Shown piece by piece: positions 26,371 through 62,762 of a DNA stretch of 64,000 nt; positions within the stretch are counted from its first letter, which is position 1; each line of letters begins with the position of its first letter. The stretch is from NCBI GenBank assembly GCA_965113315.1, contig OZ220363.1; one strand, written 5' to 3'. The notes under the pieces were generated by a model, which saw only the letters and a program-made list of their open reading frames with translations, was not told where the DNA came from and did not search any database. The translations under genes were made by a program, and so were the position numbers. Origin of the DNA: Podarcis vaucheri. Taxonomy: Eukaryota.

Positions 26371-29067
26371 ATTTGATCCAGGAATGTACCTATTTCCCTT
26401 GCCACCAAGCTCAGCAAGGAAGATGAACCAGTGCTTGTCCTGAGTGACAGTGGCAGCTGGGAGGGAGCACCCTGTTGCCTTTCCATGGCCTCTCCTGGGA
26501 TCTGAAGTGTGTTTAAGCCAAACCTTGGGATTCTGATAATTTCCTATATGCATGACTCCTGGGTGCATCCTACTGGGTGAAGGACTGGGGTTGTTAGAGA
26601 AAAGCTGGCAGCTCTGATTTCTGGGTGAGGCAGAGAGTGACTGTACTCCTTCAGTAAATTGAGAAGGATCTGCCTGGGAATTGCAGGGTGCATTGTCTCA
26701 AGATCCTGGGTTCAAGTATTTCCTGGGGCACCCCAGAATTCTCTCCTGTCTGGAGGCTGTAAATTTGAAAGGGAGCGGGGAGGTCAGCTATAGTTCAGAC
26801 ACAACTGGCCAGCCCTACAGGACTGTTGTTCAAGGAGGAATGTAAGCAGGCTCTCTTCGCCTTACCCTTCTGTTACAGGGGTCACTAGTGGCTGCTTTGC
26901 CAAGTGCATTCTCAAACTTGCACCTGGCCATGGCATATAGCTGCAGCAATTATAAAATGCTTCAAAGGCTGACTGGGTCAGTTAAGATAAAATATAAAGG
27001 ATTAAAGATTAAAGATTAAAAGAAGTCCAAGGAGCCGCGGTAGGCGCGTCTTACCTCGGCGCCATTTTCTCCCCTCCCTCTCCAAGACCAGAGAACAGGA
27101 TCCTTGCACCTGGCCCTGTTCACACACATTACCTGTGGAAGAGTGTGACCTTGAGACTGAAAGGGCTTCCTCACCTTTGCTCTAGAGACATTTATTTGAG
27201 GGCTGAAATTTCACCTGAGTAGAGCTGCAGTCTCTGCATGCAGAGGAGAGGAGAAAAATTTGGCTCAGAATCCACCTGTACACATCATACCACAGATGGG
27301 CAAAATGATTCCTCCCTTCCTATTTACAGTTTAACAGGATATCAAGATTGTCATCTATATAAAAACATGTTTAACTGCCACATATCAATCAATACCAAAT
27401 AAGGGTGACATATTTACTAGTTGTGACTTTTATTACATCAAAGAATATCCCAGAGGTCATTTTGGTGCTTCCGAAGGGATGACTTCCCAGAGCCCTCGCT
27501 CTGCCTCTTCAGAAAATGAGGCTATAAAATGGAAAATTGATTAAAAATGTAAGATATACAGCTTTGGTTCTATTTCTATTGAAAGTAATATAAAAATACT
27601 GCAGCATATCAGTTTATAACAGCTTCTGTATCACAGGAGGTCCCCCTAATGGTTTATTTCTTGGTACTGGGCACTGGACTGATTTACTTAACTGTGTGAA
27701 AAATTGAATTTTTTGGTCTGTTTGCATGGTGGTGGTTTTTTTTTGTTTGTTTCTTATTATTTTCCTTTTCGCCCACTGCATGACAATAAAACAGTGTGCT
27801 GAAGCTCATTGTGTCATTCGATTCTGACCGCATCAAAAATGCACCTGTAGTCACCTCTGTGGGAGCGCTCAAGTGCTCAATATAAGCTGGAGTTCGCAGG
27901 TGCCAAGCTCCATAACCTTTCTTCCTAGCAGGAATTGAACATCAATTGTTCAGCATCTAAAGCAAAGAGTCACTCTTGCTGCACTCGGTGCCATCCATGT
28001 GTTCATAGGTTAACTTTAAATTAAAGGAGCAGAATAAACAATTAATCTCAGCTCCGCTGTTCACATTCTATTACGTTAGGTCTGTTTCTGAAACATTGTG
28101 TGTCAGCATAGTTTTCCTTTCACCGACATTCATCAGTTTGCTTCAGATTTTTTCTCTCTCTTTCTCTTGTTCTCTTCTATTTGGACTATTGGAAGTTGGG
28201 GTCAAACTATATCCAAGAGATGGGGGAACTTTTTCAGCCTGGGCACTACAATCCCTTCCAGTGGTGGGCAGGGCCAGAAGCAAGAGTGGGTGGAGTGATG
28301 GATGTAAATTTTACCTTTGTACAGTAGGCTACTTTCTATGAACACACACACACACACTCCCTATTCTCCATTCAAGGAAGTAGGAGGTGTTGTCATAGTT
28401 TAAGGACACATTCCAGCCAGGCTAAAATATCAAAGGAAGCTATGAAGCAGTGGATGTGGATGGGCAGAGTCCCCAGAGGCAGATAGACAGGAATGGAGGA
28501 TGCCCACCTCTGCTATACAATGGCACTGTTCATGTCTTTAGCCCTAGTGTTACTGTATTTATTTTTTAAATAAATAAATCATCAGAGTAGGAAGAGGAGG
28601 GGCAGTCAGATCTCTCAGAATCATATCCATACTACCCACAGCAGTCATTTGCAATGGGAGGATGTTCCCAATGGCTCCCTACAAGGAGAGGGCGAGAAAT
28701 ACACAATGTGATGTCAGCACAACACAGGGAAGTGTGCCCAAATGATACAGAGATAGAGATAGAACTCGATGTTGGGATGCTGGTTTTGCCAATATTGGGG
28801 AGCACAGGGTGTGCGCAGGGGGAAAGGAGTGCAACCTGCTGTGCCAGTGGAAGTTCTTGTTCAGGGCTTCTCCTGACAGGACTCATTTGGTTGAATCCTC
28901 CCTTAAGGATGGGAAAAGATGTGACACTGGATACAGGCCTGCTGCCAAAATGGGCATTCCCATGTTGAGTTCTCCCTCAGTCATTTTGACACATTTACTT
29001 GTGTGATGGCATCAATTCATGTGTTTTCCAGTCTCCCCTTCTTGCCTTGTGTTGAGCATAACACTTG

Positions 29068-33653: not shown

Positions 33654-34506
33654 GAATCATAGAATCATAGAATCATAGAGTTGGAAGAGACCACAAGGGC
33701 CACTGAGTCCAACCCCCTGCCAAGCAGGAAACACCATCAGAGCACTCCTGACATATGGTTGTCAAGCCTCTGCTTAAAGACCTCCAAAGTAGGAGACTCC
33801 ACCACACTCCTTGGCAGCAAATTCCACTGTCGAACAGCTCTTACTGTCAGGAAGTTCTTCCTAATGTTTAGGTGGAATCTTCTTTCTTGTAGTTTGGATC
33901 CATTGCTCCGTGTCCGCTTCTCTGGAGCAGCAGAAAACAACCTTTCTCCCTCCTCTATGTGACATCCTTTTATATATTTGAACATGGCTATCATATCACC
34001 CCTTAACCTCCTCTTCTCCAGGCTAAACATGCCCAGCTCCCTTAGCCGTTCCTCATAAGGCATCGTTTCCAGGCCTTTGACCATTTTGGTTGCCCTCCTC
34101 TGGACACGTTCCAGCTTGTCAGTATCCTTCTTGAATTGTGGTGCCCAGAACTGGACACAGTACTCCAGGTGAGGTCTGACCAGAGCAGAATACAGTGGCA
34201 CTATTACTTCCCTTGATCTAGATGCTATACTCCTATTGATGCAGCCCAGAATTGCATTGGCTTTTTTAGCTGCCGCGTCACACTGTTGGCTCATGTCAAG
34301 TTTGTGGTCAACCAAGACTCCTAGATCCTTTTCACATGTACTGCTCTCAAGCCAGGTGTCACCCATCTTGTATTTGTGCCTCTCATTTCTTTTGCCCAAG
34401 TGCAATACTTTACATTTCTCCCTGTTAAAGTTCATCTTGTTTGTTTTGGCCCAGTTCTCTAATCTGTCAAGGTCGTTTTGAAGTGTGATCCAAGGTCGTT
34501 TTGAAG
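33654..34506 (-). mobile_element. CR1 LINE, 5'-truncated, open ORF2 C-terminus, nested in an old L2 fragment
   Basis: ORF 33737-34490 is nearly identical to the 24958-26370 copy. (ATTCTATG)n tail; 16-bp duplication at the 5' junction. The right flank reads as decayed L2 ORF2 (HQLHPVL...[12 protein letters not shown]). Confidence 0.96.
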
Positions 34507-35046
34507 AGTGCACCAACTGCACCCAGTTTTGAGGAAGGTGGACTTGCCTATGGTCAGATATGTCTTAGTTACTTCAAGCTTGGACCAATATAACACTATT
34601 ATATTAGTAAGCTGCAGATAGGGAAAGAATGTAGCTGGTGAACTGTTGACTGGATCCTGCCTTGGGGCCGGGATACTTAAAGGATCATCTCCCCCTGTCT
34701 GATCCTGACTATGCACTGAGTTCATCTAAGGAGGCTGTTCCACACATCCCCAGCCCAAAATAAGATGGGGTTTCATCAACTGTTGCTTTGAGAGATTTGC
34801 TTAGCACCCCTCTGAGATGGCATTTGGCCACCACCTGAAACCCTTTCTGGAGAGTTAAGCCATGGGTCTGAATGTTTATTGCTTTTGGCTGTATTGACTC
34901 TCTTCTGTTACAATTCTTGGTTTTCATTATTACCTGTCACCCTTCTGCTTGTTTTTAGAATGTTATAATTGTTTTAATAGACACCTCGAGGAGAAATTTG
35001 AATCTCAAAGTCATCAGTATTTAAGGCCACCTAAGCTAATGGAGCA

Positions 35047-38560: not shown

Positions 38561-41192
38561 CGTCCCTATTTTCATCAAAGAAATGTTGGAGGGTATGTCA
38601 TAGTTATAGTTATAGAGTGTGTTTCATCTGTCTCTTTAAGAGACTTACCTGAACTATAAGAGAAGCTCCCCTCCCCTCTTTGGGTGTGATTTCCCCCATA
38701 GCTGAAGGAGAACTAGTTGGAACCTTTGTACTGCCTAAGTAGCAAGTCCTTGCTGCTATGCTGATTTGTTGTTCTGTCATTCATAAAGATTCTCATGACT
38801 TCTGCTGCTTATTGGAATTAGAGGAGACCCTTTGCACACAGTGACCAACCATCCTTCCCAAACCCTTGGGATGCTACATGGTGTCAGAAGTGGGCATGCA
38901 CTTTCAATAAACTAGACACTTTTCTAACAACAAGCCTGCAGTTATTGCTGGAAGCTGCAATATTGATGTTTTCATGCCTCCTCCTTAGCTGTGCCTGACT
39001 AGAAATTTGGGGGAGAACTGGAAAAGGTGAGATCAAAAGTTTCTTTTCTTCTGTACTATCCCATGGGTTTGGTGAAGATACTCACTGTGTCCGCTTCGTA
39101 AAAGTCGTATATACCTGCCTCAGAACAATACCACCTTTCATGAATATTCACTAAATGGCAACATTTTGGTTTTTTTCATGATTTTTATGCAATTGTATCC
39201 TGGAATGGATTGGGAATCTTTTTTAAAAAATAAACAAATAAAGGCAAGCTAGAAAAATGGCAGAGATGCTGTTGATTTTATCTACATGCAAGTAATTTTG
39301 CTGTTTACTTTTTTAAAGTCTGTTTATTTTATTGGTAGTTTCATTTGAATATTTTGTTTTATTTTTTATACTCTCTTATGTAAACCACAGGGCATTTTTT
39401 AGTAAGCAGCATATAAATCTCATAGTAGTAAATATAATAAATCAAACACATAAGGATAAATTAAAATTGCTAATGCCAGAGGAAGGAATACATTTCCAGA
39501 TGTATTATCAGCTGAAATTAGGCAGGCCCCCAGCTTCATAATCTTTAGTCACCTACTGAAGATGTTTTTGTTTAAGGAGCTTTTCCATGAGGGGTAACCC
39601 AGTCATTTATGGAATATTAACTGCACACCTGTAGGAATAGTTTTATTGTTTCTTGAGTTGGTAGAAATGGTTTGCACTTTTTTTTAGAATTTGTATTATT
39701 GTAAATTATTTTTGTATGATTTTTTATCGTGTTGCACACTGCTTCGATAGCCTTAGGCCAAGAAGCATTTTATACACTTGTGTAATAAATAAATGAAATG
39801 AAATGTGCAGGTATGGTCTAGAGGATCCTAGGCAATATTAAGGAGGCCTTGAAAATAAGCCCTCACTGTATCTCATGCTGTTCATTCTGTTAATTCCCTT
39901 TTCAAAATTTGAGCTTTGCCTCCTTGTAACCCATGGTGACTTCAAGACAAAAACGAATGCATCCGAGAGGAAAAGTTGTGTCAGTCAGCTTAACAGCAGG
40001 ACCAGTAATTGCCCTTGATTCTATCCGAAATGAATCTCTACATTTGGGGCTTTCTTTTCTTTTGGGGTTAGCTTCCCATTGTGTTCTTTTGTCTTCTTTC
40101 CAGCACAGCCATTACATTTTCAAGATATTCAATTTACATAATTGAGGACGTCCAGTTAATTTTAGGAAAATTACTACTTTGTGGGGGGAAAATAACTGTT
40201 ATACAGTAATTACTCTAAAGATATGCTGCTTTGTGTCAGGCACAATGAAATTAGTGGGTTTAAAAAAATTAAAAACATAGGCTTCTAAGCTCTCAGTGCC
40301 ACATTTAAAGGAAGAACGAATCCTGTTCGGAGACAGCTTAGCAAATTAACCACGGTGCTTGGGCACACGTTGGGTGAAGATGTGTGATTTTCAAACATCG
40401 CTAATAGGAATACTAAAAGAAGGCACTGATTTTTGCTATAGTAAATTTGCTTGTCAGGCTGCAAGATGTGCTTTCTCTACAGATGCCCATTAGAGAAGAT
40501 TACTGTGTGAAAAACCAGATAGAAAGGAATAAGTGAAGGCAAGATGGATGAAAAGGGCATAGCCATCTGGTTGGCTACTGTGAAAAACAGGGCACTGGTC
40601 AAGGCAGGCCTTTGATCAGATCCAGCAGCACACCTCTTATAAAACACGAGCCAGTGAGGTGGGAGAAGGAAAAGTACCAAAGGAGCTGTGAGGTACACAG
40701 GACCCACACCTGTGACTGAAATGTGCATAAAATTTGCATACAATGATGCAAGGTGAATTACAATGGTGTGGGACTGCAATGTAACCAGCACTGCAATTTG
40801 CAGCATGCCCAGTTGCCTGGTAAATAAAGTTTTAAAAAAGAGGTTTTAAAAAGAGGGAAAGGAGATCTCTAAAGACCCAGAGCTGACCTTCCTGGGATTT
40901 CCCCTCACAACATCCAGCAATTCACTGAGGGAAAACAAAAGGTAAACATTCTGTTCCTACCACACCCTTCCGTTTACCCACCATAGAAGTCAACTCCTAG
41001 GGGCTGAGGTCCTTTCACACAGCCCTAAAATATGTGAGGGGGCCAGCCCTCCCACAAAGTTGGTGGGCATTGCCATTTAAAATTGTGTACATGTTCTGCG
41101 TCATGTGATTGATTATATGGGGCAGGTACCCCGATCCCTGTAATATTTTATTCAAGTTGTCATCCTTGCTACCTATCACCCATCCTCTAGAC

Positions 41193-41328
41193 CAGGCATC
41201 CGCAAACTCGGCCCTCCAGAAGTTTTGGGACTACCATTCCCATCATCTGTGGCCACTGGTCCTGTTAGCTAGGGATGATGGGAGTTGTAGTCCCAAAACA
41301 TCTGGAGGGCTGACTTTGGGAATGCCTG
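41193..41328. mobile_element. hAT MITE (136 bp, palindromic)
   Basis: TIR CAGGCAT.C / GAATGCCTG with long internal inverted arms; 8-bp TSD CTCTAGAC / TTCTAGAC. Older relatives at ~17687-17810 and ~35590-35730. Confidence 0.88.
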
Positions 41329-43039
41329 TTCTAGACTGAAGACTTCATTCTCCCTCCCCACCTTCGTTCCCTCCATTTTAAGGTCTGTTGTCTCCCCTGC
41401 TGTAGTTTCCCTGAAATAAGGCCAAGAGTCAAATGTCCCAAACCTGGTGTAACTGAGCTAGCTGGTCCTGTGGTTTGACTTGGTGCATGGCAGCTTCCTT
41501 ACTGCATGCAGTATCTCAGCAGTACCCACAACAGGAAATAAATGTAAGTTTGAAATTGGCTGTCATACGTCTACACAAGGCAAATCACATTCATATATAC
41601 TATGCATCTTACTTTGCACAGAATGGCAAGTGTTTCTTACCTAAGCACTCTGCTCCTTTTTTCTGTCATTGAAAAACAACAACCACAAACCACCAAATCC
41701 ATCTCATCTCACCCTCAAGTGAAAATGAGATATTGAACGCGGTAGACAGGACTCTCTCTCTCCTTCCTAGCTCCCTGTCTCTCTTTATACCTCCAACTTT
41801 TCATTTTGGTACAACAAAGAGTATCTCTGGCCTCTGATCCTTCGCAAGCACCGCGTCAGAAAGTGGCGCGGTTCTTAACAAGCTATTGAAGAGATGACAA
41901 TATTGCAAAGTAACTCCATCCTCTGCATTTGACTGACATGGCTTTAGATTTTTTTCTTTTTTCTTTTTTTTACAACATTCAAATTCAAATCTACATGGTG
42001 ATGGCTTCAGCTCAGCCATCAAGAAGAAACAGCAATGTATTTATTTTTTGACATTCGATTGGAGTGTGTGTGTGTGGACTATGTAATGCAGACCAATATT
42101 GACTTTAATTTTCTTTTTAAATTAGTTTTTCTGCTTCTCAGTAATTCACTCTCAGATGCATTCTGTTGATTATATTTTGGATAGGTCTGAACTCTTGTCT
42201 CTTGTAGCAGACAAGTACCTCCATTTTCTCTATCAGTGTTTCTGCTAGCAAAACACAATGGCTGCATGCATTACACATCCATTTCTCCACTTCAGGTTAC
42301 CCAAATCTGTTTTGTTAGAGAGAAAATCCGACAAAACACTGTATGAAGTGTATTTCCGCAACCCTTTACAGTCAATCTTAATGCACTTGATGTGAGTACA
42401 ACTTTGTAACATATGGTTTAAGGCCTTTTTACATAACTTCCTTGCTGATGAATTCTGAAAATAGCTGGAGGGGGACAATCTGGATAAGCTATGGACTAAG
42501 TGCTGTGGTTTGATCCAAATCCTCATGTTTACCCCGTGAGCACTAAACGGTTTGATTTCCCGTCTATCTAGTGTGGCTTACAGTCTCAGACGGAATACAG
42601 TGATAACTCTATATTGTAAATAACATATTTTGCCTTAAAAGGGCTAGTTACCAAATATTTAGCTTGGGATCTTGTAGAAATCAGAGTGTATCTCTGTGTG
42701 TATATTCACAGGTGTGATTACACCCTTGAAAATGCCACCGAAACAAAGGAAAAAAGAGAATTTTATGTAGGTCCTCTACATGGCAAACATCACTGTTCTT
42801 GAGTGTAGAGAGGATGTTGCAAATTCTCCTATTCTTAAACTGAGGTGGAGCCAAATGTCTCAACAGCCCAATCCTGGTCCCTGCTTTAGCTGTTGTTGGT
42901 AGTGCTGTGGGGGAAAATTACCTCACATATTTTGACTTTTCTCCACCAATTAAAGAGGAAAGAAATTACAGTTAAAATTATCAGTGGGGGCAGAAAATTT
43001 TGGTATGATTCTCATGGGTGGGGCACAAAATTTCCAGCT

Positions 43040-46309: not shown

Positions 46310-46681
46310 CCGGTACACTCAATACAATACAAAAACACACAAAAAACACAAAATGTGCAAACCGAAACAATAACTCGCACAGCTTTAAAGGCCATAGATT
46401 ATTAGCCAAAGGCCTAGGAGAAGAGAAATGTTTTTGCCAGGTGCCTAAGTATATCTATTGAAGGCACCAGGTAAGCCCCTGCCCCTCTGAGGAGAGCATT
46501 CCACAAGGGAGAAGCCACTGCAAAAACGGCCCATTCTCACATTGCTGCCCTCTGGACGTTTCACCGAGGAGGCACACAAAACGATCACAGGGTCTGGGTT
46601 GGTTCATATGATTAGAGGCAGTACTTGATCTACTGCAGTCCTGAGCTGTTGAAAGCTTTATAGTTCAAACCCAGCACTTGA
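46310..46681 (-). mobile_element. Old L2-like LINE 3' part, left half; interrupted by a nested insertion and continuing at 54955-55175
   Basis: ...AAAGCTTTATAGTTCAAACCCAGCACTT joins to TGAACTGGGCCCAGAAACTAAT... in the pattern of squamate L2 3' regions. Confidence 0.65.
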
Positions 46682-46714
46682 GATTTATGGATGAAGGCAG
46701 TATACAAATTTAAA

Positions 46715-46932
46715 CAAAGCGTGTTCTCACTAAGGGAGAGCACGTGTTGCGGCTGGGGCCAGGCAAAGCACCCTTTAGTTGCCAGGCAGAATTGTTGGAA
46801 GGGGCCTGGCCAGGATTGGTGTTGGCGTTGCTGGGGCAAATAGTATGTTGCCAATTTGGGGGTGGAGATCAGAGGATATTTAAGCAAGGCCCACAGAGAG
46901 TTGCTTTCTCTTTCACTGTGGGCATCGGATCA
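46715..46932 (+). repeat. Split direct repeat A1 (218 bp); copies A2 53301-53518 and A3 54116-54333
   Basis: CAAAGCGTGTTCTC...GGCATCGGATCA occurs three times, identical by eye. Confidence 0.97.
46877..46883 (+). promoter_or_regulatory. TATA-like box in repeat A (putative element promoter)
   Basis: TATTTAA ~30 bp upstream of a pyrimidine-rich Inr-like TTTCACT, close to the 3' end of A. Confidence 0.45.
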
Positions 46933-47099
46933 GCTCGGATCGAACCATAGCGAAGGACTGGTTGTATACAACTTATTCCATTCCCAATCTCCTCTCCTTT
47001 TAATTTTATTTAATTTACCTATTTCTTTGCCTCTGGTAATTTGCCATATTCCTCTTCATATTTTCTCTTCTTTCTGAGTTTTCTTGGGCTTCTTAATTT

Positions 47100-47950
47100 C
47101 AGTTAGACCCCTGACGCAGCTCCCCCGGGGGCTTCGGGCCCTGCGGGCCGCTGGGGGTGGCCGGGTTAGGCACCAGACCCTAGGCTTACGGTCCGGTACA
47201 CGGCTGAAGCAGGCGAAGGGGGTCGGTCCTTTGGGACCCGGCTATTGCCGGCTGGCACTCTTGGCCTGAAGCAGCAGGCCCGGGGGGATCGCAAGGCCAG
47301 GGGTCTGTAGTTAATAGCTTAGGCTCATTTAATCTCGCCCCCTTCCCCCCTTTTCCCTCCCCCCTTTTTCTTTACCCGTATTGGATCGGGCACTTACCGG
47401 GTCGTCGGTGGCCTCCTTTCTCGTGCGCTCCGACGCGCCTGGCTCGGCCGAGTCAGGCCGAGTGGGTGGAGGCGCCGCGCAGGCGCCTGGGTGAGCGGCC
47501 GATTCGCGCTTCGCGCTCTCGGCGGCTAGGCCCGCGAGGCCTTTAGGCGCCCGAGGCCTCGTTCGAGAGGCTGAGCGGTGCTTTCCTCCCCCCCCGGGTT
47601 GTTGTGGGGCGGCGGGGGAGCCGGCGACAGGCCGCGGGGCGGCTTCCCGGCCTAAAGAAGGGCCTCCGCGTTCCCTCCCCCCACGCTCACGCGGGTGGCG
47701 GTGTTGGCGCGCTCCTACCGGGCCGCTTCGGGTGGTGGGGCTGCGTAGGCGCCGCTGCTCGGTTCGGCCTCCTCGGCCCATAATCGGCCTAATTTAGGCC
47801 TTTGGGAGGGGGCCTGCTGACCAAGGGCGGTGAGGGCCGCCATTTTGGTGTTTTGGCGCGAGCGCCAATTTTTCTTTAGCCTTTCTGCATTAGTGTGCTG
47901 GCCTCTAGTGGCCATTGATAGCAAGTGCAGCCTATAATTGGCCTAGGCTG
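47100..47950. promoter_or_regulatory. CpG-island-like GC-rich 5' leader of the Ngaro element
   Basis: Very high GC and CpG density against a CpG-depleted background; YY1-like GCCGCCATTTT near 47837. Confidence 0.7.
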
Positions 47951-48102
47951 CCGGTGTGCCACCTGCTGGTGAGCGGTATAATTACACCTGCCTGGAATTA
48001 ATTGGTTTACTTTGCAGTTTTAAGCTATTTCTTGGTCAGAGTAAGTTTTATTCCTAAAATTACTTGCATTCATTGTTAATTTGTATACCGTTGGCAGCAG
48101 GT

Positions 48103-49734
48103 ATGGCTCCAAAGAATAGGGCGGCAAAGAGGCCTGGGCCGGAGCCCTCAGCAAAGCAGCCCATGAAAGCAAAGAGGCCTATAAAGGGCCCGTCCCAGGC
48201 TTTGCGGTCACCTCGGCCGGATCAGTCGATGAGCCGCATCCAGGCCATGATCACTGGTCTGGCTGGTGACCCTCCTGCACTGGCCCGATTGGAGGCTGAA
48301 ATGAATGGCCTGTTACATCGTTGTTCTACTCCATCAACTTCTACTGCAGGGCTGGCCCCTCCTGCTGGCATTGCCTCTTCGGCGTCCTCTTCTAGTGAAG
48401 ATGAGGGAGGGATTGTAGCAGCTGGAGATTCCTCTCCTGGCGCCTTGGCCCAGGCCCCGGACTTACCAGCAGGACCGGCGCCTGCACGAAGGGGTCAGGG
48501 GGGTGCCAGGGGTACGGCCAATAGAAGGGCGTCAGCTAGGATCAGAGCAGCACAGGCGCCGGGCGTCCCGTCTCCTGCGGCTGCACGATTGGTCCCTGGT
48601 CATTCACAGATTCTGTCTTTTCAGTCTCTTCCTGGTGCAATTCAGCAAAGAAGAGGAGCTTCAAGAGGCGGGCCAAGCGGAGTCGGAGGGTCACTTCATC
48701 ATCTGCCTCAGTCAGTTCCAGGCGTCGTGATGCAAGGTGACGCATCCGAGTCCTCTGTGGAGGACAGCCTTCCACCACCTCCAAAGTCGTCTTCGGGTGG
48801 GCTCCGTCGCCGAAAAAAGAGTTCTAGGAGGCACGCCAAGAAGAGACGGAGGGACACTTCATCCTCTTCCGCAGGTACTTCGTCCCAAACATCCAGTAGT
48901 GACGAGGAAGCCTCACTCAAGCTATACTGGGGCTTTGCAGAGACCTCTGGTCTCCCAAAATGGGCTTGGGAGCGGAGGGCAAACTCTCATAGGGCTAGGT
49001 ATGGGGCGGTGCAGGACTGCCTGGAGGGGGTCCTCATGCCTGACGTGAAGGTCTCTACCAATTCGGCTAGGGACATTATTCCCGGTGCCCACTTGCATAC
49101 AAAACTGCGGTCCAGGATTCTGGATGGCCGTTACATTGATATATTTAGTTTGGCACCCCCTCAGGAGTGCCAGGACTCGCAGGATAGGGGTGTGGCAGCC
49201 ACAAAAAAGAGGGTGGTCTTGCCAAAGGTGGAAAGGACCTTCGAGCGATGGTTGGATAGTTTCCAGGTGTTCGCTGGAGTGGTGGCTGCGGCTTACCCAC
49301 AGAGATCCATGCACTTATGGGTTTATTTGTCCATAGTCCGCTCAGCGTTTACGATGGCGGGAGCGTCTGCTGCAATTTCTTATGATGAGAATTTCAGACG
49401 CAGGGCTGCCAAGATCCCCACTGCCCGCTGGGATCGTAAGGATTTAGATGTCTGGACTACTTATGTAGCCCCACGCATCGATAATAAGGTCCCTGAATTG
49501 CAGAAACCTAAGAATGTGCCAGCTAAAATTGGTCGTAAGTTCTTTTGTTGGGACTTTAACAAGGGTACCTGTCAGCGCCAGTTCTGCAGATATTCCCATA
49601 GTTGTGAGAAGTGTGCAGGGAACCACCCGGCATCTTCTTGTGCGGGGGTGCGACGGCCCTTTCGAAAAGGAGGGGGCTCTCAGCAGCCCCCAAAGGCCGC
49701 CCCCCAGGCTACAGTCTCCGGAGCAGGAAAATAG
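48103..49734 (+). CDS. gag: Ngaro ORF1 Gag-like protein (first ATG 48103; 543 aa)
   Basis: Low-complexity basic/Ser-rich N-terminus with an NLS-like RRRKK...KKRRR. Conserved-looking core (I..G.YIDIF.L, W...F.VF, YDE.FRR) and C-terminal CWDFNKGTC...C.Y.H.C..C...H....C zinc finger. Confidence 0.9.
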   Translation: MAPKNRAAKRPGPEPSAKQPMKAKRPIKGPSQALRSPRPDQSMSRIQAMITGLAGDPPALARLEAEMNGLLHRCSTPSTSTAGLAPPAGIASSASSSSEDEGGIVAAGDSSPGALAQAPDLPAGPAPARRGQGGARGTANRRASARIRAAQAPGVPSPAAARLVPGHSQILSFQSLPGAIQQRRGASRGGPSGVGGSLHHLPQSVPGVVMQGDASESSVEDSLPPPPKSSSGGLRRRKKSSRRHAKKRRRDTSSSSAGTSSQTSSSDEEASLKLYWGFAETSGLPKWAWERRANSHRARYGAVQDCLEGVLMPDVKVSTNSARDIIPGAHLHTKLRSRILDGRYIDIFSLAPPQECQDSQDRGVAATKKRVVLPKVERTFERWLDSFQVFAGVVAAAYPQRSMHLWVYLSIVRSAFTMAGASAAISYDENFRRRAAKIPTARWDRKDLDVWTTYVAPRIDNKVPELQKPKNVPAKIGRKFFCWDFNKGTCQRQFCRYSHSCEKCAGNHPASSCAGVRRPFRKGGGSQQPPKAAPQATVSGAGK

Positions 49735-51340
49735 TGTTCTTTCCTCTTTAGCTTATACCCCAGTTAAGTTACAGCCATTGTTGTCATGGTTACAATTATA
49801 CCCTCTTCAGGAAGCAGCGTCTTATTTGCGTGATGGTTTCTCTCTGGGCTTTCGAATCCCAGTGGCGTCAACTCCAGTAGCTAGGAACCCTTCAAACCAG
49901 AAGTCGGTGAGGGAAATGCCTGAAGTCGCGCGTAGGAAGATTGGGAAAGAACTGGCTTTACGACGTATGGCCGGCCCCTTTGCTGAGCCCCCCTTTCCCA
50001 ATCTTCATATTTCACCCTTAGGTATAGTTCCTAAAAAAGCTCCAGGGGAATTTCGCCTGATTCACAACCTTTCTCACCCTAGGGGCACATCAGTAAATGA
50101 TGTTATTCCCCCGGAGCTTTGTTCTGTGAAGTATGCTTCGCTTGATCAAGCGATCAAAATGATAAGGAAATTTGGGCAGGGTGCCCTGCTGGCCAAATGT
50201 GACATTGAGTCTGCATTTCGGTTGCTTCCAATTCATCCAGACGACTTCTGGCTGCTGGGATTTCAGTTTGATGGGGAATTTTATTTTGACAAGGCCATGC
50301 CCATGGGCTGCTCAGTAGCCTGTGCCGCCTTTGAGTGTTTTAGTTCCTTTCTGGACTGGGCCCTACGCAAAAGAACTGGTTTGGGCGGGGTCACTCATTA
50401 TCTCGATGATTATTTATTGGCCTCAGCTAGTGATACGGGAGACTGTGTGGTGTTGCTGCAGGCCTTCGCGGCCTTAACTGAGGAACTGGGCGTACCGTTA
50501 GCCGCTGAGAAGACTGAAGGTCCTTCTACGCAGCTGACTTATCTGGGTATTCTGTTGGATACGGTGGCGCAAACTTCTAGTTTGCCGGCAGATAAGATTC
50601 TCGCGCTGAGAGGTGTTATTTCTGACCTCATTCCCTTAAAAAAGGTTACTCTGCGACAACTGCAGTCGTTGCTGGGCCACCTAAATTTTGCTTGCAGGGT
50701 GATTGCTCCGGGGCGGCCTTTCTGTTCCCGTCTGGCCAGACTTATGTCTGGTTTGCGGTCCCCGAGGCATAGAGTGCGCTTGTCAGCCCAAGTGCGTGCT
50801 GATCTTCGTATTTGGTTGGAATTCCTGGAGGAATTCAACGGCGTGTCGCTTTGGCAGGACACCCTGAACCTGTGTAATGATTTTCAGGTGCACTCTGATG
50901 CTGCAGGGTCACTGGGCTTCGGTTTGTATTGGGATGGCAGGTGGTGTGCCGAACGTTGGCCTCTGGCTTGGCGTGGGGAAGCTATAACTCGGGACTTAAC
51001 TTTTCTTGAGTTTTTCCCTATTGTAGTGGCTGTCCATTTGTGGGTCGAGCATTTCAGGGACCGGCGCGTATGTTTTTGGACAGATAACCTGGCGGTGGTG
51101 AACGTGCTGGCCAAGCAGTCTTCACGATCACCTAGGGTATCAGCACTGCTGAGGGTTTTCGTTTTGCATTGCTTGCGCCTTAATATTGTATTTTCCGCTC
51201 GTTTTGTGCCTGGAGTATCTAACGAGATTGCTGATGCTCTGTCCCGTTTTCAGATGGAGCGATTCAGGTCCCTGGCGCCAGTGGCTCGAGACCGTCCGGA
51301 ATTTTTCCCGGATCATCTCTGGAACCTTGGCAGCACTTAG
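49514..51340 (+). CDS. pol: Ngaro reverse transcriptase / RNase H
   Basis: SPLGIVPKK, FRLIHNLS, KCDIESAFRLLP, MPMG, HYLDD; RNase H residues SDA, LEFFP, TDN, ADALSR. Overlaps gag by 221 nt. Confidence 0.96.
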   Translation: MCQLKLVVSSFVGTLTRVPVSASSADIPIVVRSVQGTTRHLLVRGCDGPFEKEGALSSPQRPPPRLQSPEQENSVLSSLAYTPVKLQPLLSWLQLYPLQEAASYLRDGFSLGFRIPVASTPVARNPSNQKSVREMPEVARRKIGKELALRRMAGPFAEPPFPNLHISPLGIVPKKAPGEFRLIHNLSHPRGTSVNDVIPPELCSVKYASLDQAIKMIRKFGQGALLAKCDIESAFRLLPIHPDDFWLLGFQFDGEFYFDKAMPMGCSVACAAFECFSSFLDWALRKRTGLGGVTHYLDDYLLASASDTGDCVVLLQAFAALTEELGVPLAAEKTEGPSTQLTYLGILLDTVAQTSSLPADKILALRGVISDLIPLKKVTLRQLQSLLGHLNFACRVIAPGRPFCSRLARLMSGLRSPRHRVRLSAQVRADLRIWLEFLEEFNGVSLWQDTLNLCNDFQVHSDAAGSLGFGLYWDGRWCAERWPLAWRGEAITRDLTFLEFFPIVVAVHLWVEHFRDRRVCFWTDNLAVVNVLAKQSSRSPRVSALLRVFVLHCLRLNIVFSARFVPGVSNEIADALSRFQMERFRSLAPVARDRPEFFPDHLWNLGST

Positions 51341-52227
51341 TTTTACAGGGAGTAGCTGCATCTATTGCCCCCTCCACATTGCGGTCCTATAAGAAGGCTT
51401 GGACCGATTTTTTGCATTTTACTGGGCGGTCAGTGGGAGGGGAAGTGCACACACCTCATTCTACCACACAAGTGCTCAAATATTTGGCGCATCTATTTCA
51501 GATGCGGCGGGCAGCTAGGACTCTGAGGTTGCATTCAGCTGCAATTTCCTTCTTTAGCAAGGTCTATTTTAATAATGATCCTTGTGGGAAGTTCGTTGTG
51601 CGCAAGGCTTTGGAGGGTTGGGGGCGTCTCAGCCCGTCCAGACCAGCTACAAGGAGGCCTATAACGTTTGGTTTGTTGACCGAGATGCAAGGTAAATTGA
51701 AGGGCATCTGTTGGTCCAGGTTTGAGGCTCGGTTGTTTTCCGCAGCCTATTCGCTAGCCTTTTTTGGGGCCCTGAGAGTTGGGGAGGTGGTGTTTGAACC
51801 TAAACAGGATGGTGGTTCCAGAGGCTTGTTGCTGCAGGACGTGAGCCTGTCTCAGTCGGAACTGCAGGTCCATGTCAGGAGTTCCAAAACTGATCAACTG
51901 GGTAGGGGAGCGGTTATTCGGCTCCCAGCAACTGGGATGGGGGGCCCTTGCCCAGTTAAGGATCTCCAGAAATATATGGCTTTGCGACCTCCCGGAAGTG
52001 GGCCCCTGTTCATTCATGAAGATGGGCGGCCATTGGCGCGCCATCAGTTCGCCGGTGTCTTGCGCAAAGTCGTGGCTGCCTGTGGCCATGCAGCCTCTGA
52101 ATTTGCTCCTCATTCCTTCAGGATTGGGGCTGCAACGACAGCTGCCCATTGGGGCTTGTCGGTTAAAAGGATAAAAGACCTGGGCCGTTGGAAGTCGGGC
52201 GCATACAGGGGTTATGTGCGGAAATAA
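51235..52227 (+). CDS. Ngaro tyrosine recombinase (frame open from 51235; no ATG before the conserved N-terminal region)
   Basis: Catalytic set R (GALRVGE), K (SSKTDQ), HxxR (HSFRIG), W (GRWKS), Y (YRGYVR); N-terminal APSTLRSYKKAW. Confidence 0.95.
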   Translation, partial: CSVPFSDGAIQVPGASGSRPSGIFPGSSLEPWQHLVLQGVAASIAPSTLRSYKKAWTDFLHFTGRSVGGEVHTPHSTTQVLKYLAHLFQMRRAARTLRLHSAAISFFSKVYFNNDPCGKFVVRKALEGWGRLSPSRPATRRPITFGLLTEMQGKLKGICWSRFEARLFSAAYSLAFFGALRVGEVVFEPKQDGGSRGLLLQDVSLSQSELQVHVRSSKTDQLGRGAVIRLPATGMGGPCPVKDLQKYMALRPPGSGPLFIHEDGRPLARHQFAGVLRKVVAACGHAASEFAPHSFRIGAATTAAHWGLSVKRIKDLGRWKSGAYRGYVRK

Positions 52228-52841
52228 TGTTGATTTCATGTACTCACATCTGTTGTTTTACCCTAGGTCTCCCCACTATCAGGGTCTGGATAGTGGGGCA
52301 CAGTATTGTGCATTGGGCGGCTTGCAGAGCTCGGCAATCCGAATTGGGAGCTGGCCTTGGCTTTCCTCAGCACGTACAAGTGTCCTGGATCTCCAGAAGG
52401 GGGATGCTGTGGAAGGAATTCTTACCACTCATGCAGAGACGGGTTCTGCTGGAGGGCCCCCCAACAGCGATTGTGGTGCAGCTTGGGGAAAATGATATGG
52501 TTTCCTCTTCTTGTTATGTTTTACGTGCTATTATTTTGCAGGATTTGAGGGACTTGGCGGCCTTGGTACCCGCTACTAAGATAATTTGGTCCCAGTTGCT
52601 TCAGCGTTGCATCTGGAGGGGTAGTCCCTGCCCTGTGGCCACCGAAAGGGTGCGAAAGCGTATCAATTCAGCTGCGAGCAAACTGGTGTTTGATATGGGT
52701 GGGCTTGTGATTCCCCACCCAGATATTAATGTTAAAGCCACTGATTGCTACAGGTTGGATGGGGTTCATCTTACCTCAGTTGGGAATGATGTATGGTTGA
52801 GGTCAGTGGTGGCTATGTTGAGGGTGTGTTTAAGCTTGTGA
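52227..52841 (+). CDS. SGNH/GDSL-family hydrolase (esterase-like) accessory ORF
   Basis: Block I VWIVGHSIV, block II RRG, block III QLGENDM, block V DGVHL. The ATG at 52227 overlaps the recombinase stop (TAATG). Confidence 0.88.
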   Translation: MLISCTHICCFTLGLPTIRVWIVGHSIVHWAACRARQSELGAGLGFPQHVQVSWISRRGMLWKEFLPLMQRRVLLEGPPTAIVVQLGENDMVSSSCYVLRAIILQDLRDLAALVPATKIIWSQLLQRCIWRGSPCPVATERVRKRINSAASKLVFDMGGLVIPHPDINVKATDCYRLDGVHLTSVGNDVWLRSVVAMLRVCLSL

Positions 52842-52870
52842 GTGGTTGGCGGCGAGCGTAAGGGCTCGGG

Positions 52871-53300
52871 TGGCGGTTAGGCATTGGTTTAAATTGGTTG
52901 GTGGAGGGGTATGGATTGGCTGTGCCTGCCCCTCAGGTGATGCTGCTGCACGGGAATTCCGTTAAAGGAATTCAGGGGCTTACCATCCTTTCGTCCAAAC
53001 CCCTGGAATCGGGTTTGGGCCGCGTAAGCCCCTAGGAGCATGTGGGGAGAAGCTGAGGGTCTGTGTCGCAGCTCCAGTTATCCCCGAACTTGTTCCTCCA
53101 CACTGGCTTCCGCTGGAATCCGGAAGTCAGTACTGTCCCCATGGCGGGGGGACAGATAGTCTTAACCAATGCCTAAGCAACCACTCACAATTATGTATGA
53201 TAATAAAGTTGTGGCCAAAATTATGCCAAAAACCTTAAACAAAAATTATGTGTGAAGTGTGAGTTATTGGGGTAGGGGTGTTTTGGGGGACCTCAGCACG
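52871..53300 (+). repeat. Split direct repeat B1 (430 bp); copies B2 53686-54115 and B3 54501-54930
   Basis: TGGCGGTTAGGCATTGG...CCTCAGCACG three times. B3 differs by C>T at 54751. Confidence 0.97.
53202..53207 (+). terminator. Polyadenylation signal AATAAA in repeat B (also 54017 and 54832)
   Basis: AATAAA followed by a GT-rich downstream element (TGTGTGAAGTGTGAGTT). Confidence 0.6.
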
Positions 53301-53518
53301 CAAAGCGTGTTCTCACTAAGGGAGAGCACGTGTTGCGGCTGGGGCCAGGCAAAGCACCCTTTAGTTGCCAGGCAGAATTGTTGGAAGGGGCCTGGCCAGG
53401 ATTGGTGTTGGCGTTGCTGGGGCAAATAGTATGTTGCCAATTTGGGGGTGGAGATCAGAGGATATTTAAGCAAGGCCCACAGAGAGTTGCTTTCTCTTTC
53501 ACTGTGGGCATCGGATCA

Positions 53519-53685
53519 CCCGCCCGCCCTCCCTTGTTTGGGCTTTCGCTTTGACCTTGCTATTGCCTGTCATGGGGTCGTTCGCCTTGGTGCGGGGGCC
53601 CGGTAGGAATTTTGCCATTTGGCTGATTAGTGTGTGCCACTTGGTTTTTGCCTACCGCGTAGCAAATCGTCACAACTTGTAAGGT
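53519..53685 (+). repeat. Spacer C1 (167 bp) between A and B; copy C2 54334-54500
   Basis: Identical by eye; not present at the 5' end of the element. Confidence 0.95.
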
Positions 53686-54930
53686 TGGCGGTTAGGCATT
53701 GGTTTAAATTGGTTGGTGGAGGGGTATGGATTGGCTGTGCCTGCCCCTCAGGTGATGCTGCTGCACGGGAATTCCGTTAAAGGAATTCAGGGGCTTACCA
53801 TCCTTTCGTCCAAACCCCTGGAATCGGGTTTGGGCCGCGTAAGCCCCTAGGAGCATGTGGGGAGAAGCTGAGGGTCTGTGTCGCAGCTCCAGTTATCCCC
53901 GAACTTGTTCCTCCACACTGGCTTCCGCTGGAATCCGGAAGTCAGTACTGTCCCCATGGCGGGGGGACAGATAGTCTTAACCAATGCCTAAGCAACCACT
54001 CACAATTATGTATGATAATAAAGTTGTGGCCAAAATTATGCCAAAAACCTTAAACAAAAATTATGTGTGAAGTGTGAGTTATTGGGGTAGGGGTGTTTTG
54101 GGGGACCTCAGCACGCAAAGCGTGTTCTCACTAAGGGAGAGCACGTGTTGCGGCTGGGGCCAGGCAAAGCACCCTTTAGTTGCCAGGCAGAATTGTTGGA
54201 AGGGGCCTGGCCAGGATTGGTGTTGGCGTTGCTGGGGCAAATAGTATGTTGCCAATTTGGGGGTGGAGATCAGAGGATATTTAAGCAAGGCCCACAGAGA
54301 GTTGCTTTCTCTTTCACTGTGGGCATCGGATCACCCGCCCGCCCTCCCTTGTTTGGGCTTTCGCTTTGACCTTGCTATTGCCTGTCATGGGGTCGTTCGC
54401 CTTGGTGCGGGGGCCCGGTAGGAATTTTGCCATTTGGCTGATTAGTGTGTGCCACTTGGTTTTTGCCTACCGCGTAGCAAATCGTCACAACTTGTAAGGT
54501 TGGCGGTTAGGCATTGGTTTAAATTGGTTGGTGGAGGGGTATGGATTGGCTGTGCCTGCCCCTCAGGTGATGCTGCTGCACGGGAATTCCGTTAAAGGAA
54601 TTCAGGGGCTTACCATCCTTTCGTCCAAACCCCTGGAATCGGGTTTGGGCCGCGTAAGCCCCTAGGAGCATGTGGGGAGAAGCTGAGGGTCTGTGTCGCA
54701 GCTCCAGTTATCCCCGAACTTGTTCCTCCACACTGGCTTCCGCTGGAATCTGGAAGTCAGTACTGTCCCCATGGCGGGGGGACAGATAGTCTTAACCAAT
54801 GCCTAAGCAACCACTCACAATTATGTATGATAATAAAGTTGTGGCCAAAATTATGCCAAAAACCTTAAACAAAAATTATGTGTGAAGTGTGAGTTATTGG
54901 GGTAGGGGTGTTTTGGGGGACCTCAGCACG

Positions 54931-54955
54931 CAAACAAACAAACAAACAAACAAAC
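54931..54955. repeat. (CAAA)n microsatellite, the Ngaro target site
   Basis: Directly abuts B3; the left junction reads TTTAAA-CAAA-GCG. Confidence 0.9.
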
Positions 54956-56963
54956 TTTGAACTGGGCCCAGAAACTAATCAGCTTCCAATGCAGTCAGGC
55001 CAGGATCAGTGTAATAAGCTCAAACTATCTTGCCCCAATGAGCACCCTGGTTGCCAAATTCTGCACCAGCTGAAGTTTCCAACCATCTTTAGAGGCACCC
55101 TCGCGTATAAAATAGTGCAATAATATAACCTGGAGATTACCAGAGCATGGCTGACAAAAGTTAGGTTATCCCTGCCTTTTCTGTACTGAGCTTCAGTTTA
55201 TTGGTTCTCATCCAGTAAACCTGTGGATTTGTTAGTTTCCTCAGTCCAGGAAGTGGCAAGTTAGGGCTTCTGCAGTAGTATGGATTTTGTAGGATGGCTA
55301 ACTTTTGGTTCACGTATTGCTTCAGAAAGTACAAATTAGGTAATTAGTCTTTAAATGCAAACTGAAGCACATCTCTCCCCCATCCCTACTCTTTAGGTTC
55401 AAAGATTTGAGGCAATGTGTGCAGACAGTATTCTCTCTTATTGCTTGGTGAGAAATTCATTTAAACCTTCTTCCATTGTTTGTAGCCCATGAGGGAAGCC
55501 ACAGCAAGGATGGATATCACACAGCTAGTTAACCTAGCTTCTTATTTTATTTATTTGCTTTTCTGTTTTATATTATCATCAATGCATAGTATGTTATGGT
55601 TAACCTATCATAACAACATCGAAAAAGCCCTGTTGGATAAAAAGTGAATTTCCAAAGTGCACGCGTCCATTTCCTCCACATTGCCATGCTGAACCAGTCA
55701 AGGATGAAGTGAGACCACACAATGCATTTGGTGGAGATGCAGGATGTAACCATTGTTTATCAAGATTATTTGAGGGAACAAGAAAAAAGAGGTTGACGGC
55801 TGTTAATTCATGGGTCACAGAACAAAGATAGTGCTGGTATATCCCTAGTTCAATTTATGTTGTCCAATATATGGAAGCAGAAACTTTCCCAACCAAATAG
55901 ATATTTTATATGATCCTGAAGCATGGCACCTAAAATTAGAACTCCTGTGACTGATAGTTCCAGTATGACAGTCTCTTCATAGATCTGCCCCCCACCCCCA
56001 AATAATATTGATGAGTTTTGTGTTTTGCTTGTGGGTTTTAATTTCCTTGGCTGGTTGGTTATGGAGGGCAGGGGGCATTTTTTTCACAGGAACTATTCAA
56101 GCCTTCTGGGCTGCTGGTGTCTGATGCTAGTATCCGCTATATAGAGACCTCCCATTTTCAAAAGAAATCCACAGAGATTCCTGAACTTGAGCACTGCTAT
56201 CAAAAAGAACAGTCCTTCCTGCAGGTTTTCATTTCAAAATAGTTGCTTACAGCCTTAATTTAAACTTGAGTAACAAATGTGAGGTTCCTTCCCCCATCCC
56301 AAGAGACACATAGTTCACATAAGTGAAAAAGTAGAAAATTCATCTCTCTCTCATTCCACCCCCACCCCCTCTGCAGCCAGCCACTGCTGGTGCTTCAATA
56401 GTGATAAAGGGAGGGGGGCTGTCATGAGATGGATTGAGGGAGGCTTTGGGACTGAATGATCCAGTGTCTACCCATTCCCATAAAACACTCCCACAAGGGA
56501 GGCAGAATATGTCGGGATTCATGCCTGCCTTCAGGAGAAACTGGCCACTCTCCAGGCACCCGGCTTGAATCACCGGTTGACCTCCCTGTCTACATTCCCG
56601 GCAAGATCCAGGCAAGGTCGCGATCGGCGATCCTCCCCAGCGTGAAGAGGACACACCACTCTTTTCTGCCCCTAGGCAGGGGAAAGAGATAGACAGAAAC
56701 GTATTTACATGTCTTTATTTCTGTCTTTGCAGCATTACAGAGAAACACGTCTGCTCTCTTCAGACTCCAACAGCAGAGAGACACAAACTCCACCTACTGT
56801 ACATCCTGCACAGCTCATATTACACTGTGAGCTAATTCTGGTGCTTCGCACTGTGAAAAGACTGCCCCTTTGTTTCCCACGGAACAGTACCCAACATTCT
56901 TATTATGTTTTGCTTCCAAGCTAGCAGCTGGCAGCCGCATTGCTTCTTTTCCGTAACAGAATA

Positions 56964-57194
56964 CAGTGGTGCCTCGCAAGACGAAATTAATTCGTTCCGC
57001 GAGTTTTGCCGTCTAGCGAATTTTTCGTCTTGCGAAGCACGGTTTTAACGGTTTAACAAAGTCGCGAAAAGTTTTCGTCTTGCGAAGCAAGCCCATAGGG
57101 GAATTCGTCTTGCGATGCAAATCGAAAACGAAAAAACCTTTCGTCTAGCGAGTTTTTTTGTCTTGCGAGGCATTCGTCTTGCGAGGTACCACTG
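56964..57194. mobile_element. Tc1/mariner-type MITE, family 1
   Basis: TA-CAGTGGTGCCTCGCAAGACGAA...TTCGTCTTGCGAGGTACCACTG-TA. Confidence 0.9.
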
Positions 57195-57211
57195 TATACC
57201 AAAGGCTTGTA

Positions 57212-57437
57212 CAATGGTACCTCAGGTTACATACACTCCAGGTTACAGACTCCGCTAACCCAGAAATAGTACCTCGGGTTAAAAACTTTGCTTCAGGATG
57301 AGAACAGAAATCATGTTCCGGCAGCGCGGTGGCAGCAGGAGGCCCCATTAGCTAAAGTAGTGCTTCAGGTTATGAACAGTCTCAGATTAAGAACAGACCT
57401 CCGGAACGAATTAAGGACTTAACCCGAGGTACCACTG
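57212..57437. mobile_element. Tc1/mariner-type MITE, family 2 (reverse orientation)
   Basis: TA-CAATGGTACCTC...GAGGTACCACTG-TA. Confidence 0.88.
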
Positions 57438-57669
57438 TATACTTATTCACCACCTCCTATCCTGTGCAACCCAGCAGGCTATAGGAAGTGGTGGTACCTG
57501 CACTCAGCTCTGCCCAATGCCCACCTTAGAATTGCTTTGTCAGAGAGCTGAAGCAGTTATTGAGAATATGCAGAAGTTAAAGCCCACAGTTGTCTTTGAG
57601 GGGTTTTGCAGGGCAGGCACAGTTTAAATTTTACAACTTTCTGCTTTCCTCTTTTAGTTGACGTCTAAG

Positions 57670-61772: not shown

Positions 61773-62138
61773 GGGACGCGGGTGGCGCTGTGGGTAAAAC
61801 CTCAGTGCCTAGGACTTGCCGATCGCATGGTCAGCGGTTCGAATCCCCGCGGTGGAGTGAGCTCCTGTCTTTCGGTCCCAGCTCCTGCCCACCTAGCAGT
61901 TCGAAAGCACCCCTAAGTGCAAGTAGATAAATAGGTACTGCTTTATAGTGGGAAGGTAAACGGCGTTTCCGTGTGCTGCGCTGGTGCTGGCTCGCCAGAG
62001 CAGCTTTGTCACGCTGGCCACGTAACCCAGAAGTGTCTCCGGACAGCGCTGGCTCCCGGCCTTTTAAGTGAGATGAGCACACAACCTTAGAGTCGGACAC
62101 GACTGGCCCGTACGGGCAGGGGTACCTTTACCTTTACC
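61773..62138 (+). mobile_element. Sauria SINE (full length)
   Basis: Head GGGACGCGGGTGGCGCTGTGG, B-box GGTTCGAATCC, (ACCTTT)n tail, TSD TATGTTAARTATA. Confidence 0.92.
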
Positions 62139-62222
62139 TATGTTAAATATATGAACATTTAGAGCACCTGTGTGAGCCTCATTGAATCCGGTGGGAATTA
62201 CTCCCAAGTAGGTAAAGTTACA

Positions 62223-62762
62223 GGGCGCGGGTGGCGCTGTGATCTAAACCACTGAGCCTAGGGCAGGGGTCAGCAAACTTCCCGCGCCTCAGGCCGGTGT
62301 CTCCAGTGCCGATCGTGTGGCGGGCCAGAGGGCGGGGGAGCGCATGCCCATACACGTATGCACAGGCTATTTCACGCGCACTTCCGAATTGGAGGAGCAC
62401 CAGAATAGCTTGTGTGCATGTGCACGGGCCTCCTCTGACCTGCATGTGTGGGTCTCATCTCGCTTTCAGGCCGAGGGAGCCGGTGTTTGTCCACAGACAG
62501 CTTTCCAGGTCATGTGGCCAGCATGACTAAACCGCTTCTGGCACCACAGAACAGCATGACAGAAACCAGAGTGCACGGAAACACCATTTACCTTCCTGCC
62601 ACAGCAGTACCTATTTATCAACTTGCATTGGCATGCTTTCGAACTGCTAGGTTGGCAGGAGCTGGGACACAGCAATGGGAACTCACTACTCCGTTGCGGG
62701 GATTTGAACCACTGACCTTCTGATCGGCAAGCCCAAGAGGCTCAGTGGTTTAGACCACAGCA
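62223..62762. mobile_element. Composite: Sauria SINE head (+, 62223-62262), hAT-like terminus and GC-rich insert, then Sauria SINE on the minus strand (~62450-62762)
   Basis: The SINE head stops at CCTAGGG, followed by CAGGGGTCAGCAAACTT (hAT MITE-type end); a reverse-complement SINE body follows. Confidence 0.7.

Follow-up and report, generated by a model that had tools for sequence, protein, structure and literature searches.

A stretch of 64,000 nt of Podarcis vaucheri DNA (GenBank assembly GCA_965113315.1, contig OZ220363.1; the window) carries an 8.2 kb tyrosine recombinase (YR) retrotransposon of the Ngaro type at positions 46718–54933 (+ strand). Across 131 copies of its family the join to host DNA is fixed, the target is one-sided and there is no duplication; in an alignment of junctions from this and other Ngaro families, the stems that surround the joining point in the element covary. 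That it is a Ngaro element, an ordinary and young member of its family inserted at the family's target motif, is almost certain. As a model for the whole process, to which we give about an even chance, the recombinase would cut the junction between the element's B and A repeats once, on the sense strand folded as a two-stem hairpin, in the style of an integron integrase.

The comparison of the 131 copies sets the boundaries of the element, which reads A1-internal-B1-A2-spacer-B2-A3-spacer-B3, all on the + strand. The first split direct repeat, A1 (46718–46932), is followed by the internal region, B1 (52868–53303, with CGCAA at its end), A2 (53304–53518), a spacer (53519–53682) and B2 (53683–54118), after which there is an extra A3-spacer-B3 unit (54119–54933), and the element's last bases, to 54933, are again CGCAA. 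A1, A2 and A3 are the same over 218 nt and a single base differs between the two 815-nt units, so this copy is young. Split direct repeats of the form A1...B1A2B2 are a defining feature of Ngaro elements, and 61 of the 131 sampled copies have the full-length form. The extra A-spacer-B unit was seen in two of 61 B-anchored elements (the window copy and L123), and two junctions 803 nt apart on contig C19 (26906261–26907090) suggest a third case; its source could be an extra template jump, an unequal crossover or an assembly error. Every A repeat carries a TATA-like box (46875, 53461 and 54276) and every B repeat an AATAAA (53202, 54017 and 54832), so that a transcript containing the junction must read through B1.

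Four overlapping open frames, all intact, lie between A1 and B1. ORF1 (48058–49734, +; 558 aa from stop to stop) is gag-like by position, with a weak CCCH match below the cut-off, and overlaps the reverse transcriptase/RNase H (RT/RH) ORF (49469–51340, +; 623 aa; RVT_1, E 6e-14). A methyltransferase domain separates PAT elements, which have it, from Ngaro elements, which lack it. In the RT/RH ORF none was found, RVT_1 being the only Pfam match at E up to 1, and the translation leaves too little room for one, as the ORF stops about 30 aa past the end of RNase H. The recombinase ORF follows on the same strand, the order expected of a Ngaro (51235–52227, +; 330 aa; its Phage_integrase match, E 5e-6, falls slightly short of the curated cut-off), and contains candidate R, K, HxxR, W and Y residues that we take to be the catalytic set. 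Its nearest named homologues are from lizards (53–63% identity), and no solved structure matched it by sequence. Downstream, where Ngaros of the vertebrate subtype carry an SGNH hydrolase ORF, is a putative SGNH/GDSL-like hydrolase ORF (52167–52841, +; 224 aa) with a weak Lipase_GDSL match below the cut-off (E 0.029) and, by eye in the translation, motif-like GHS, GEND and DGVH. Sequencing reads aligned to it derive from relatives, for the most part under 95% similar; they showed neither start nor end sites and carry no weight as evidence.

This layout matches Ngaro descriptions in the available parts of PMC9210276, PMC8547959 and PMC4157794, the likeness being one of descriptions. With amphibian Ngaros of the SGNH type (such as Xenopus DIRS-53_XT), as excerpted from PMC9210276, it shares the A1...B1A2B2 repeats, gag, RT/RH and YR, as well as a hydrolase-like fourth ORF and the lack of a methyltransferase. 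Unlike the Ngaros in those parts of the descriptions, there is a spacer between A2 and B2 and, in the window copy, the extra A-spacer-B unit.

On the left, the element follows the host half-site A-C-A-A (46714–46717, +), which by position counts fits R-[C/T/G]-A-A, and the join lies after 46717; on the right it is followed by host (CAAA)n (54934–54955, +). Together with 46681–46717 the latter makes up a ~60-nt insert in an older dispersed repeat, 18 other copies of which all lack it (0/18), and no second copy of this insert was present in the fetched loci. There are thus three nested layers, the Ngaro within the ~60-nt (CAAA)n insert within the older repeat, and the insert resembles a truncated LINE tail. 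Elsewhere in the window, broken ORFs at 25051–26543 (−) and 33737–34564 (−), with an RVT_1 match at 25746–26543 (E 2e-28), are probably LINE fragments. Inverted repeats occur at 41186–41335 (a hairpin with 62-nt arms) and 56958–57443 (a MITE-like pair), and a third, at 61850–62693, consists of two SINE-like copies in opposite orientation.

The ends and the junction are as described in an earlier, sequence-only reading of this DNA. The left end is host ...TTTAAA CAAA GCGTG, with CAAA at 46715–46718, the right end is CAGCACG CAAA CAAACAAAC from 54931 on, in a (CAAA)6.2 array that spans 54931–54955, and at the internal B|A junction AGCACGC (53295–53301), AAA (53302–53304) and GCGTGTT (53305–53311) form inverted arms that match at 6/7 positions. 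The same junction sequence recurs at 54110–54126. It is found 154 times in the genome and is therefore not a chance arrangement.

Across the genome there are 480 occurrences of the B-end motif; subtracting the 154 internal junctions leaves about 326 right ends. Two samples were drawn, one of 60 loci anchored on B ends from three contigs and one of 76 loci anchored on A starts from later contigs. Seven loci were dropped: one had no left end, five lacked a right end within 9.5 kb, and one duplicated another. After one right end had been relocated by hand, the set, to which the window copy was added, numbered 131 paired elements. Ending in CAA was a condition of selection for the B-anchored half, and the 71 A-anchored copies are unselected. 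Among the loci, a Ngaro copy starts ~10 nt past the right end of another at L026, the left flank of L243 is like the start of an A repeat and suggests insertion into or beside the element's own family, L113 lies in a tandem satellite whose adjacent units show the empty site at 95–100% identity, and two solo copies 4.3 kb apart with near-identical flanks (L128) are probably the result of local duplication. Contig C41 (41 Mb) has many YR matches of other Ngaro families and several loci without normal repeats (L251, L257 and L258), and is possibly a repeat-rich chromosome.

In all 131 copies the join is at CAA|A, the element beginning with A and ending in CAA (131/131 each), which bears out the earlier proposal that the B|A junction is the recombination point of a tyrosine recombinase retroelement. 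The target is R-[C/T/G]-A-A|N. Position −1 is a purine in 124 copies (A 73, G 51), c1 is C in 61, T in 52, G in 17 and A in one, c2 is A in 126 and c3 is A in 112. Left ends of other Ngaro families show the same motif (−1 purine 16/16, AA 14/16). Target information is confined to one side of the cut and there is no second half-site in the 131 copies; past the cut the first host base alone is biased, the second having no pairing-type bias. That first base is C in 44/131 copies (17% expected, p = 3e-6) and G in 8/131, less often than host DNA has it behind this motif (p = 3e-6), and A shows no enrichment relative to the motif background (p = 0.24). In the other families C comes first in 12 of 30 right ends (two internal junctions having been removed by hand).

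These counts decide the proposal of the sequence-only reading that a palindromic site directs the element to (CAAA)n microsatellite tails, with CAAA as the core common to both. The window copy does lie in (CAAA)n, and three others (L103, L150 and L277) are in or against simple repeats. The flank survey, a check which that reading itself had suggested, refutes such targeting: among the ~326 right ends one runs into CAAA repeats, which is the window copy itself, (CAAA)n was found at 0/130 other sampled copies, and insertions within any short tandem repeat (2/130) are at the 2.1 expected from motif frequency. What element and target share is AA and not CAAA, the left end being CAA in 58/131 copies, and the palindrome is not conserved. 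We regard microsatellite targeting as highly improbable and of no importance; the match between the junction's CAAA and its (CAAA)n flank is a one-off, and the array was a target since the motif happens to occur within it.

Ordinary target-site duplications, which would also have told against that reading, are absent. At five insertions into host repeats with uninterrupted copies the flank spacing is 0 (in 4/4, 1/1, 26/26, 14/15 and 1/1 of the uninterrupted repeats). Flank matches of 2–3 bp are at the level of shuffles, and 4-bp matches number five against 1.0. A 2-bp duplication was ruled out by left ends in AT that are paired with right ends in AA.

The two ends of the element differ in how strictly they are kept. 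Mismatches to AA occur at left ends only (11/71, against 0/71 at right ends; Fisher p = 6e-4), and in an unselected search CAA was kept in 50/50 true right ends (hand count). Four further B-like matches of that search (L247–L250) diverge early, have no upstream B repeat and were set aside as due to chance. No right end carries the six post-cut bases expected of a second-exchange product, and the five matches to them, roughly as many as chance would give, have all diverged by the third base. The one-sided mismatch, the lack of a second-exchange product and the lack of a second half-site together indicate that the products record a single exchange at CAA|A; one strand exchange is also all that is seen in the products of integron-like recombination.

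The 131 elements comprise, besides those of full length, 52 solo A-spacer-B and 18 A-internal-B copies, and none that is permuted (A-spacer-B-A-internal-B). A free circle with two equal junctions would yield about half permuted copies, so that the 0/131 seen means that entry does not take place interchangeably through the internal junction. The internal junctions at 53300 and 54115, which the sequence-only reading called additional donor-like sites, are intact in sequence, but a plain circle that could use either junction is unlikely. The internal junction may generate shorter forms. Solo copies, also known from Cafeteria Ngaros in the portion of PMC8547959 consulted, are older than full-length ones (median nearest-neighbor divergence 1.4% against 0.17%, p = 1.5e-5), an age difference that fits homologous recombination and recombinase use of the internal junction equally, and A-internal-B copies are not older (0.17%, p = 0.86).

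The classical scheme, published for DIRS1-like elements (PMC3266345 and PMC7192593, in the parts available), has a double-stranded circle undergo two exchanges over a core of 2–3 bp that is the same in the target, and agrees with the absence of duplication here. It predicts mismatches at both ends, where 11 and 0 were seen, and permuted copies from a two-junction circle, and its third core base is not shared, the target having A there in just 55/131 copies. It is already disfavored, and we consider it very unlikely.

Folding shows that the B end pairs with a stretch ~30 nt into A (z −3.1 to −4.9 in longer windows). The junction hairpin, defined by predicted folds and covariation, spans 53294–53341 of the sense strand (+), with the cut point at 53303|53304. 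Its outer stem (53299–53303 with 53333–53337) is followed by two unpaired positions and an inner stem (53306–53314 with 53322–53330) that includes an invariant T53310·G53326 pair; in the extra tandem unit a second hairpin lies at 54109–54156 (+), with the cut point at 54118|54119. For comparison, junctions were collected from other Ngaro families of the same genome (YR 54–59% identical where measured): 40 loci from other YR matches gave a B1/B2 junction in 21 and none in 19, and 18 distinct junctions make up the alignment. In these the two-stem hairpin is paired in 97.4% of 234 cells, a figure for a structure derived from the same sequences on which it was scored, and 34 cells are changed on both sides, which corresponds to far fewer events, the junctions being related. 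None of 500 shuffles scored as high, slid controls reached at most 60%, and RNAalifold recovers the same two stems unaided. The distance between the arms varies from 28 to 32 nt, 6/13 pairs show no variation, and of 12 distinct junctions folded singly, seven have a weak z-score (above −2). Every family has its cut at the outer stem's edge, and three sequences have a compensatory change in the pairing partner of the CRCAA arm. The 7-3-7 palindrome of the sequence-only reading is present (53295–53311, +), but it is specific to this family and not conserved across Ngaro families; as a functional dyad it was rejected, being paired in 69.8% of cells in the other families with covariation not above that of shuffles.

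The strand is suggested by the T·G pair, which is invariant in 18/18 junctions and can form on the sense strand only, and by the stability of the fold, which is higher for the sense strand in 9/12 distinct junctions and for the bottom strand in 3/12. We propose that the post-cut C excess and G deficit arise because the incoming host base pairs with an invariant hairpin G. The second post-cut base, with no bias of the pairing type, and the unenriched A at the first count against the model. The donor could instead be a folded antisense cDNA, cut at T|TTG, with the target bases serving as a homology check on the free 5′ end. The sole single-stranded cDNA of the DIRS order observed to date, according to the part of PMC7192593 available, is the antisense one that accumulates for DIRS-1, the antisense strand folds as well (z −3.1 to −4.9), and the donor G could form a pair with C, or a wobble with T, at c1. 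On that strand the invariant T·G turns into an A·C mismatch, the −1 position (A 73, G 51) is near background, so that homology is not being read there, and the C excess is not predicted. An antisense donor is accordingly an unlikely alternative, though one we rate above the classical circle.

For the sense-strand model, a possible sequence of steps is as follows. One recombinase monomer would bind the outer CRCAA/TTGYG stem and cut after AA, and a partner monomer, at the T·G-wobble stem six bases on, would make no cut. One strand pair would then be exchanged with the host half-site, and insertion would be completed by replication or repair. The donor would have defined ends, with the enzyme holding its outer junctions or the two being joined, and would not be a free circle on which both junctions are equal.

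A more serious competitor, somewhat doubtful in our judgement yet the likeliest of the alternatives, has the recombinase act on a double-stranded donor with an AA-N6-T(T/C) core. The single target half-site would limit exchange to the top strands, host enzymes or replication would resolve the junction, and the hairpin would work in RNA, at the transcript or reverse transcription step, as in a template jump or termination. Read as duplex, the junctions do have AA-N6-T in 18/18 and AA-N6-TT in 16/18 cases, a core that needs no fold; the T·G of the sense strand would be a G·U in RNA, and an RNA hairpin would account just as well for both the wobble and the stability of the sense strand. A donor of this kind also explains the fixed crossover and the one-sided target no less well. 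It leaves unexplained that in all families the cut coincides exactly with the end of the outer stem, that a partner copies the CRCAA arm with compensatory change in three sequences, and that C is in excess past the cut.

The sense-strand model draws on the integron integrase, which in the parts of PMC4792948 and PMC10127599 consulted cuts after AA on a folded single strand, is lax at the base beside the cut and resolves by replication. As described there, recombination of attC with attI or secondary sites has in common with the Ngaro junction a folded two-stem site, a variable loop and one exchange, and here too the laxer A is next to the cut (112 against 126). Unlike integrons, there is no cassette array or attI, the element is a eukaryotic retroelement, and use of a single strand is a prediction; extrahelical bases, an integron feature, are absent from the consensus fold of the inner stem, their place being taken by the T·G pair together with an internal loop of 2x2.

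With DIRS1-like elements and their 3-bp circular junction, as covered in the available text of PMC3266345 and PMC7192593, the Ngaro shares a junction that begins with AA and the absence of target duplication. The published DIRS model already has a short junction in common with the target and no duplication, so that this portion of the sequence-only reading was known. The DIRS1-like elements of those texts differ in having inverted repeats and an ICR, where the Ngaro has split direct repeats, AA|N on the sense strand and only AA in common with its target. In Table 3 of PMC3266345, the middle base of the terminal trinucleotide is off-junction in 6/28 DIRS1-like elements, all at the 3′ end, in which we (the interpretation is ours and not that paper's) see the one-sided laxity of the Ngaro again, now on the antisense strand. 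Taken jointly, these analogies allow a broader scheme, which we hold more tentatively than the model for the Ngaro itself, its chances falling a little short of even: vertebrate Ngaro elements would integrate in integron-like fashion, the folded sense strand being cut once after AA, joined to any R-[C/T/G]-A-A half-site and resolved by replication, with the T·G pair disarming the second cut, and in DIRS1-like elements the antisense strand would take this course, with the ICR building the duplex.

The target motif, crossover polarity and junction hairpin are absent from the Ngaro descriptions in the available portions of PMC9210276 and PMC8547959, and a literature search outside the founding Goodwin and Poulter papers found no Ngaro junction hairpin, crossover polarity or target motif. 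New from this locus are the target census of 131 events, the asymmetry of the ends, the lack of second-exchange and permuted products, and the strand argument. In 2020, the specificity of DIRS-order recombinases was described in the accessible part of PMC7192593 as untried, and inverse PCR had given no circle junction. For the study of integration in this order, the Ngaro family offers a cut that is exactly placed and a predicted strand, along with a target motif drawn from 131 events and an enzyme that is intact. Folded single-strand recombination has so far been bacterial and phage in the portions of the literature consulted; if the fold is the substrate, it would also take place in vertebrate genomes.
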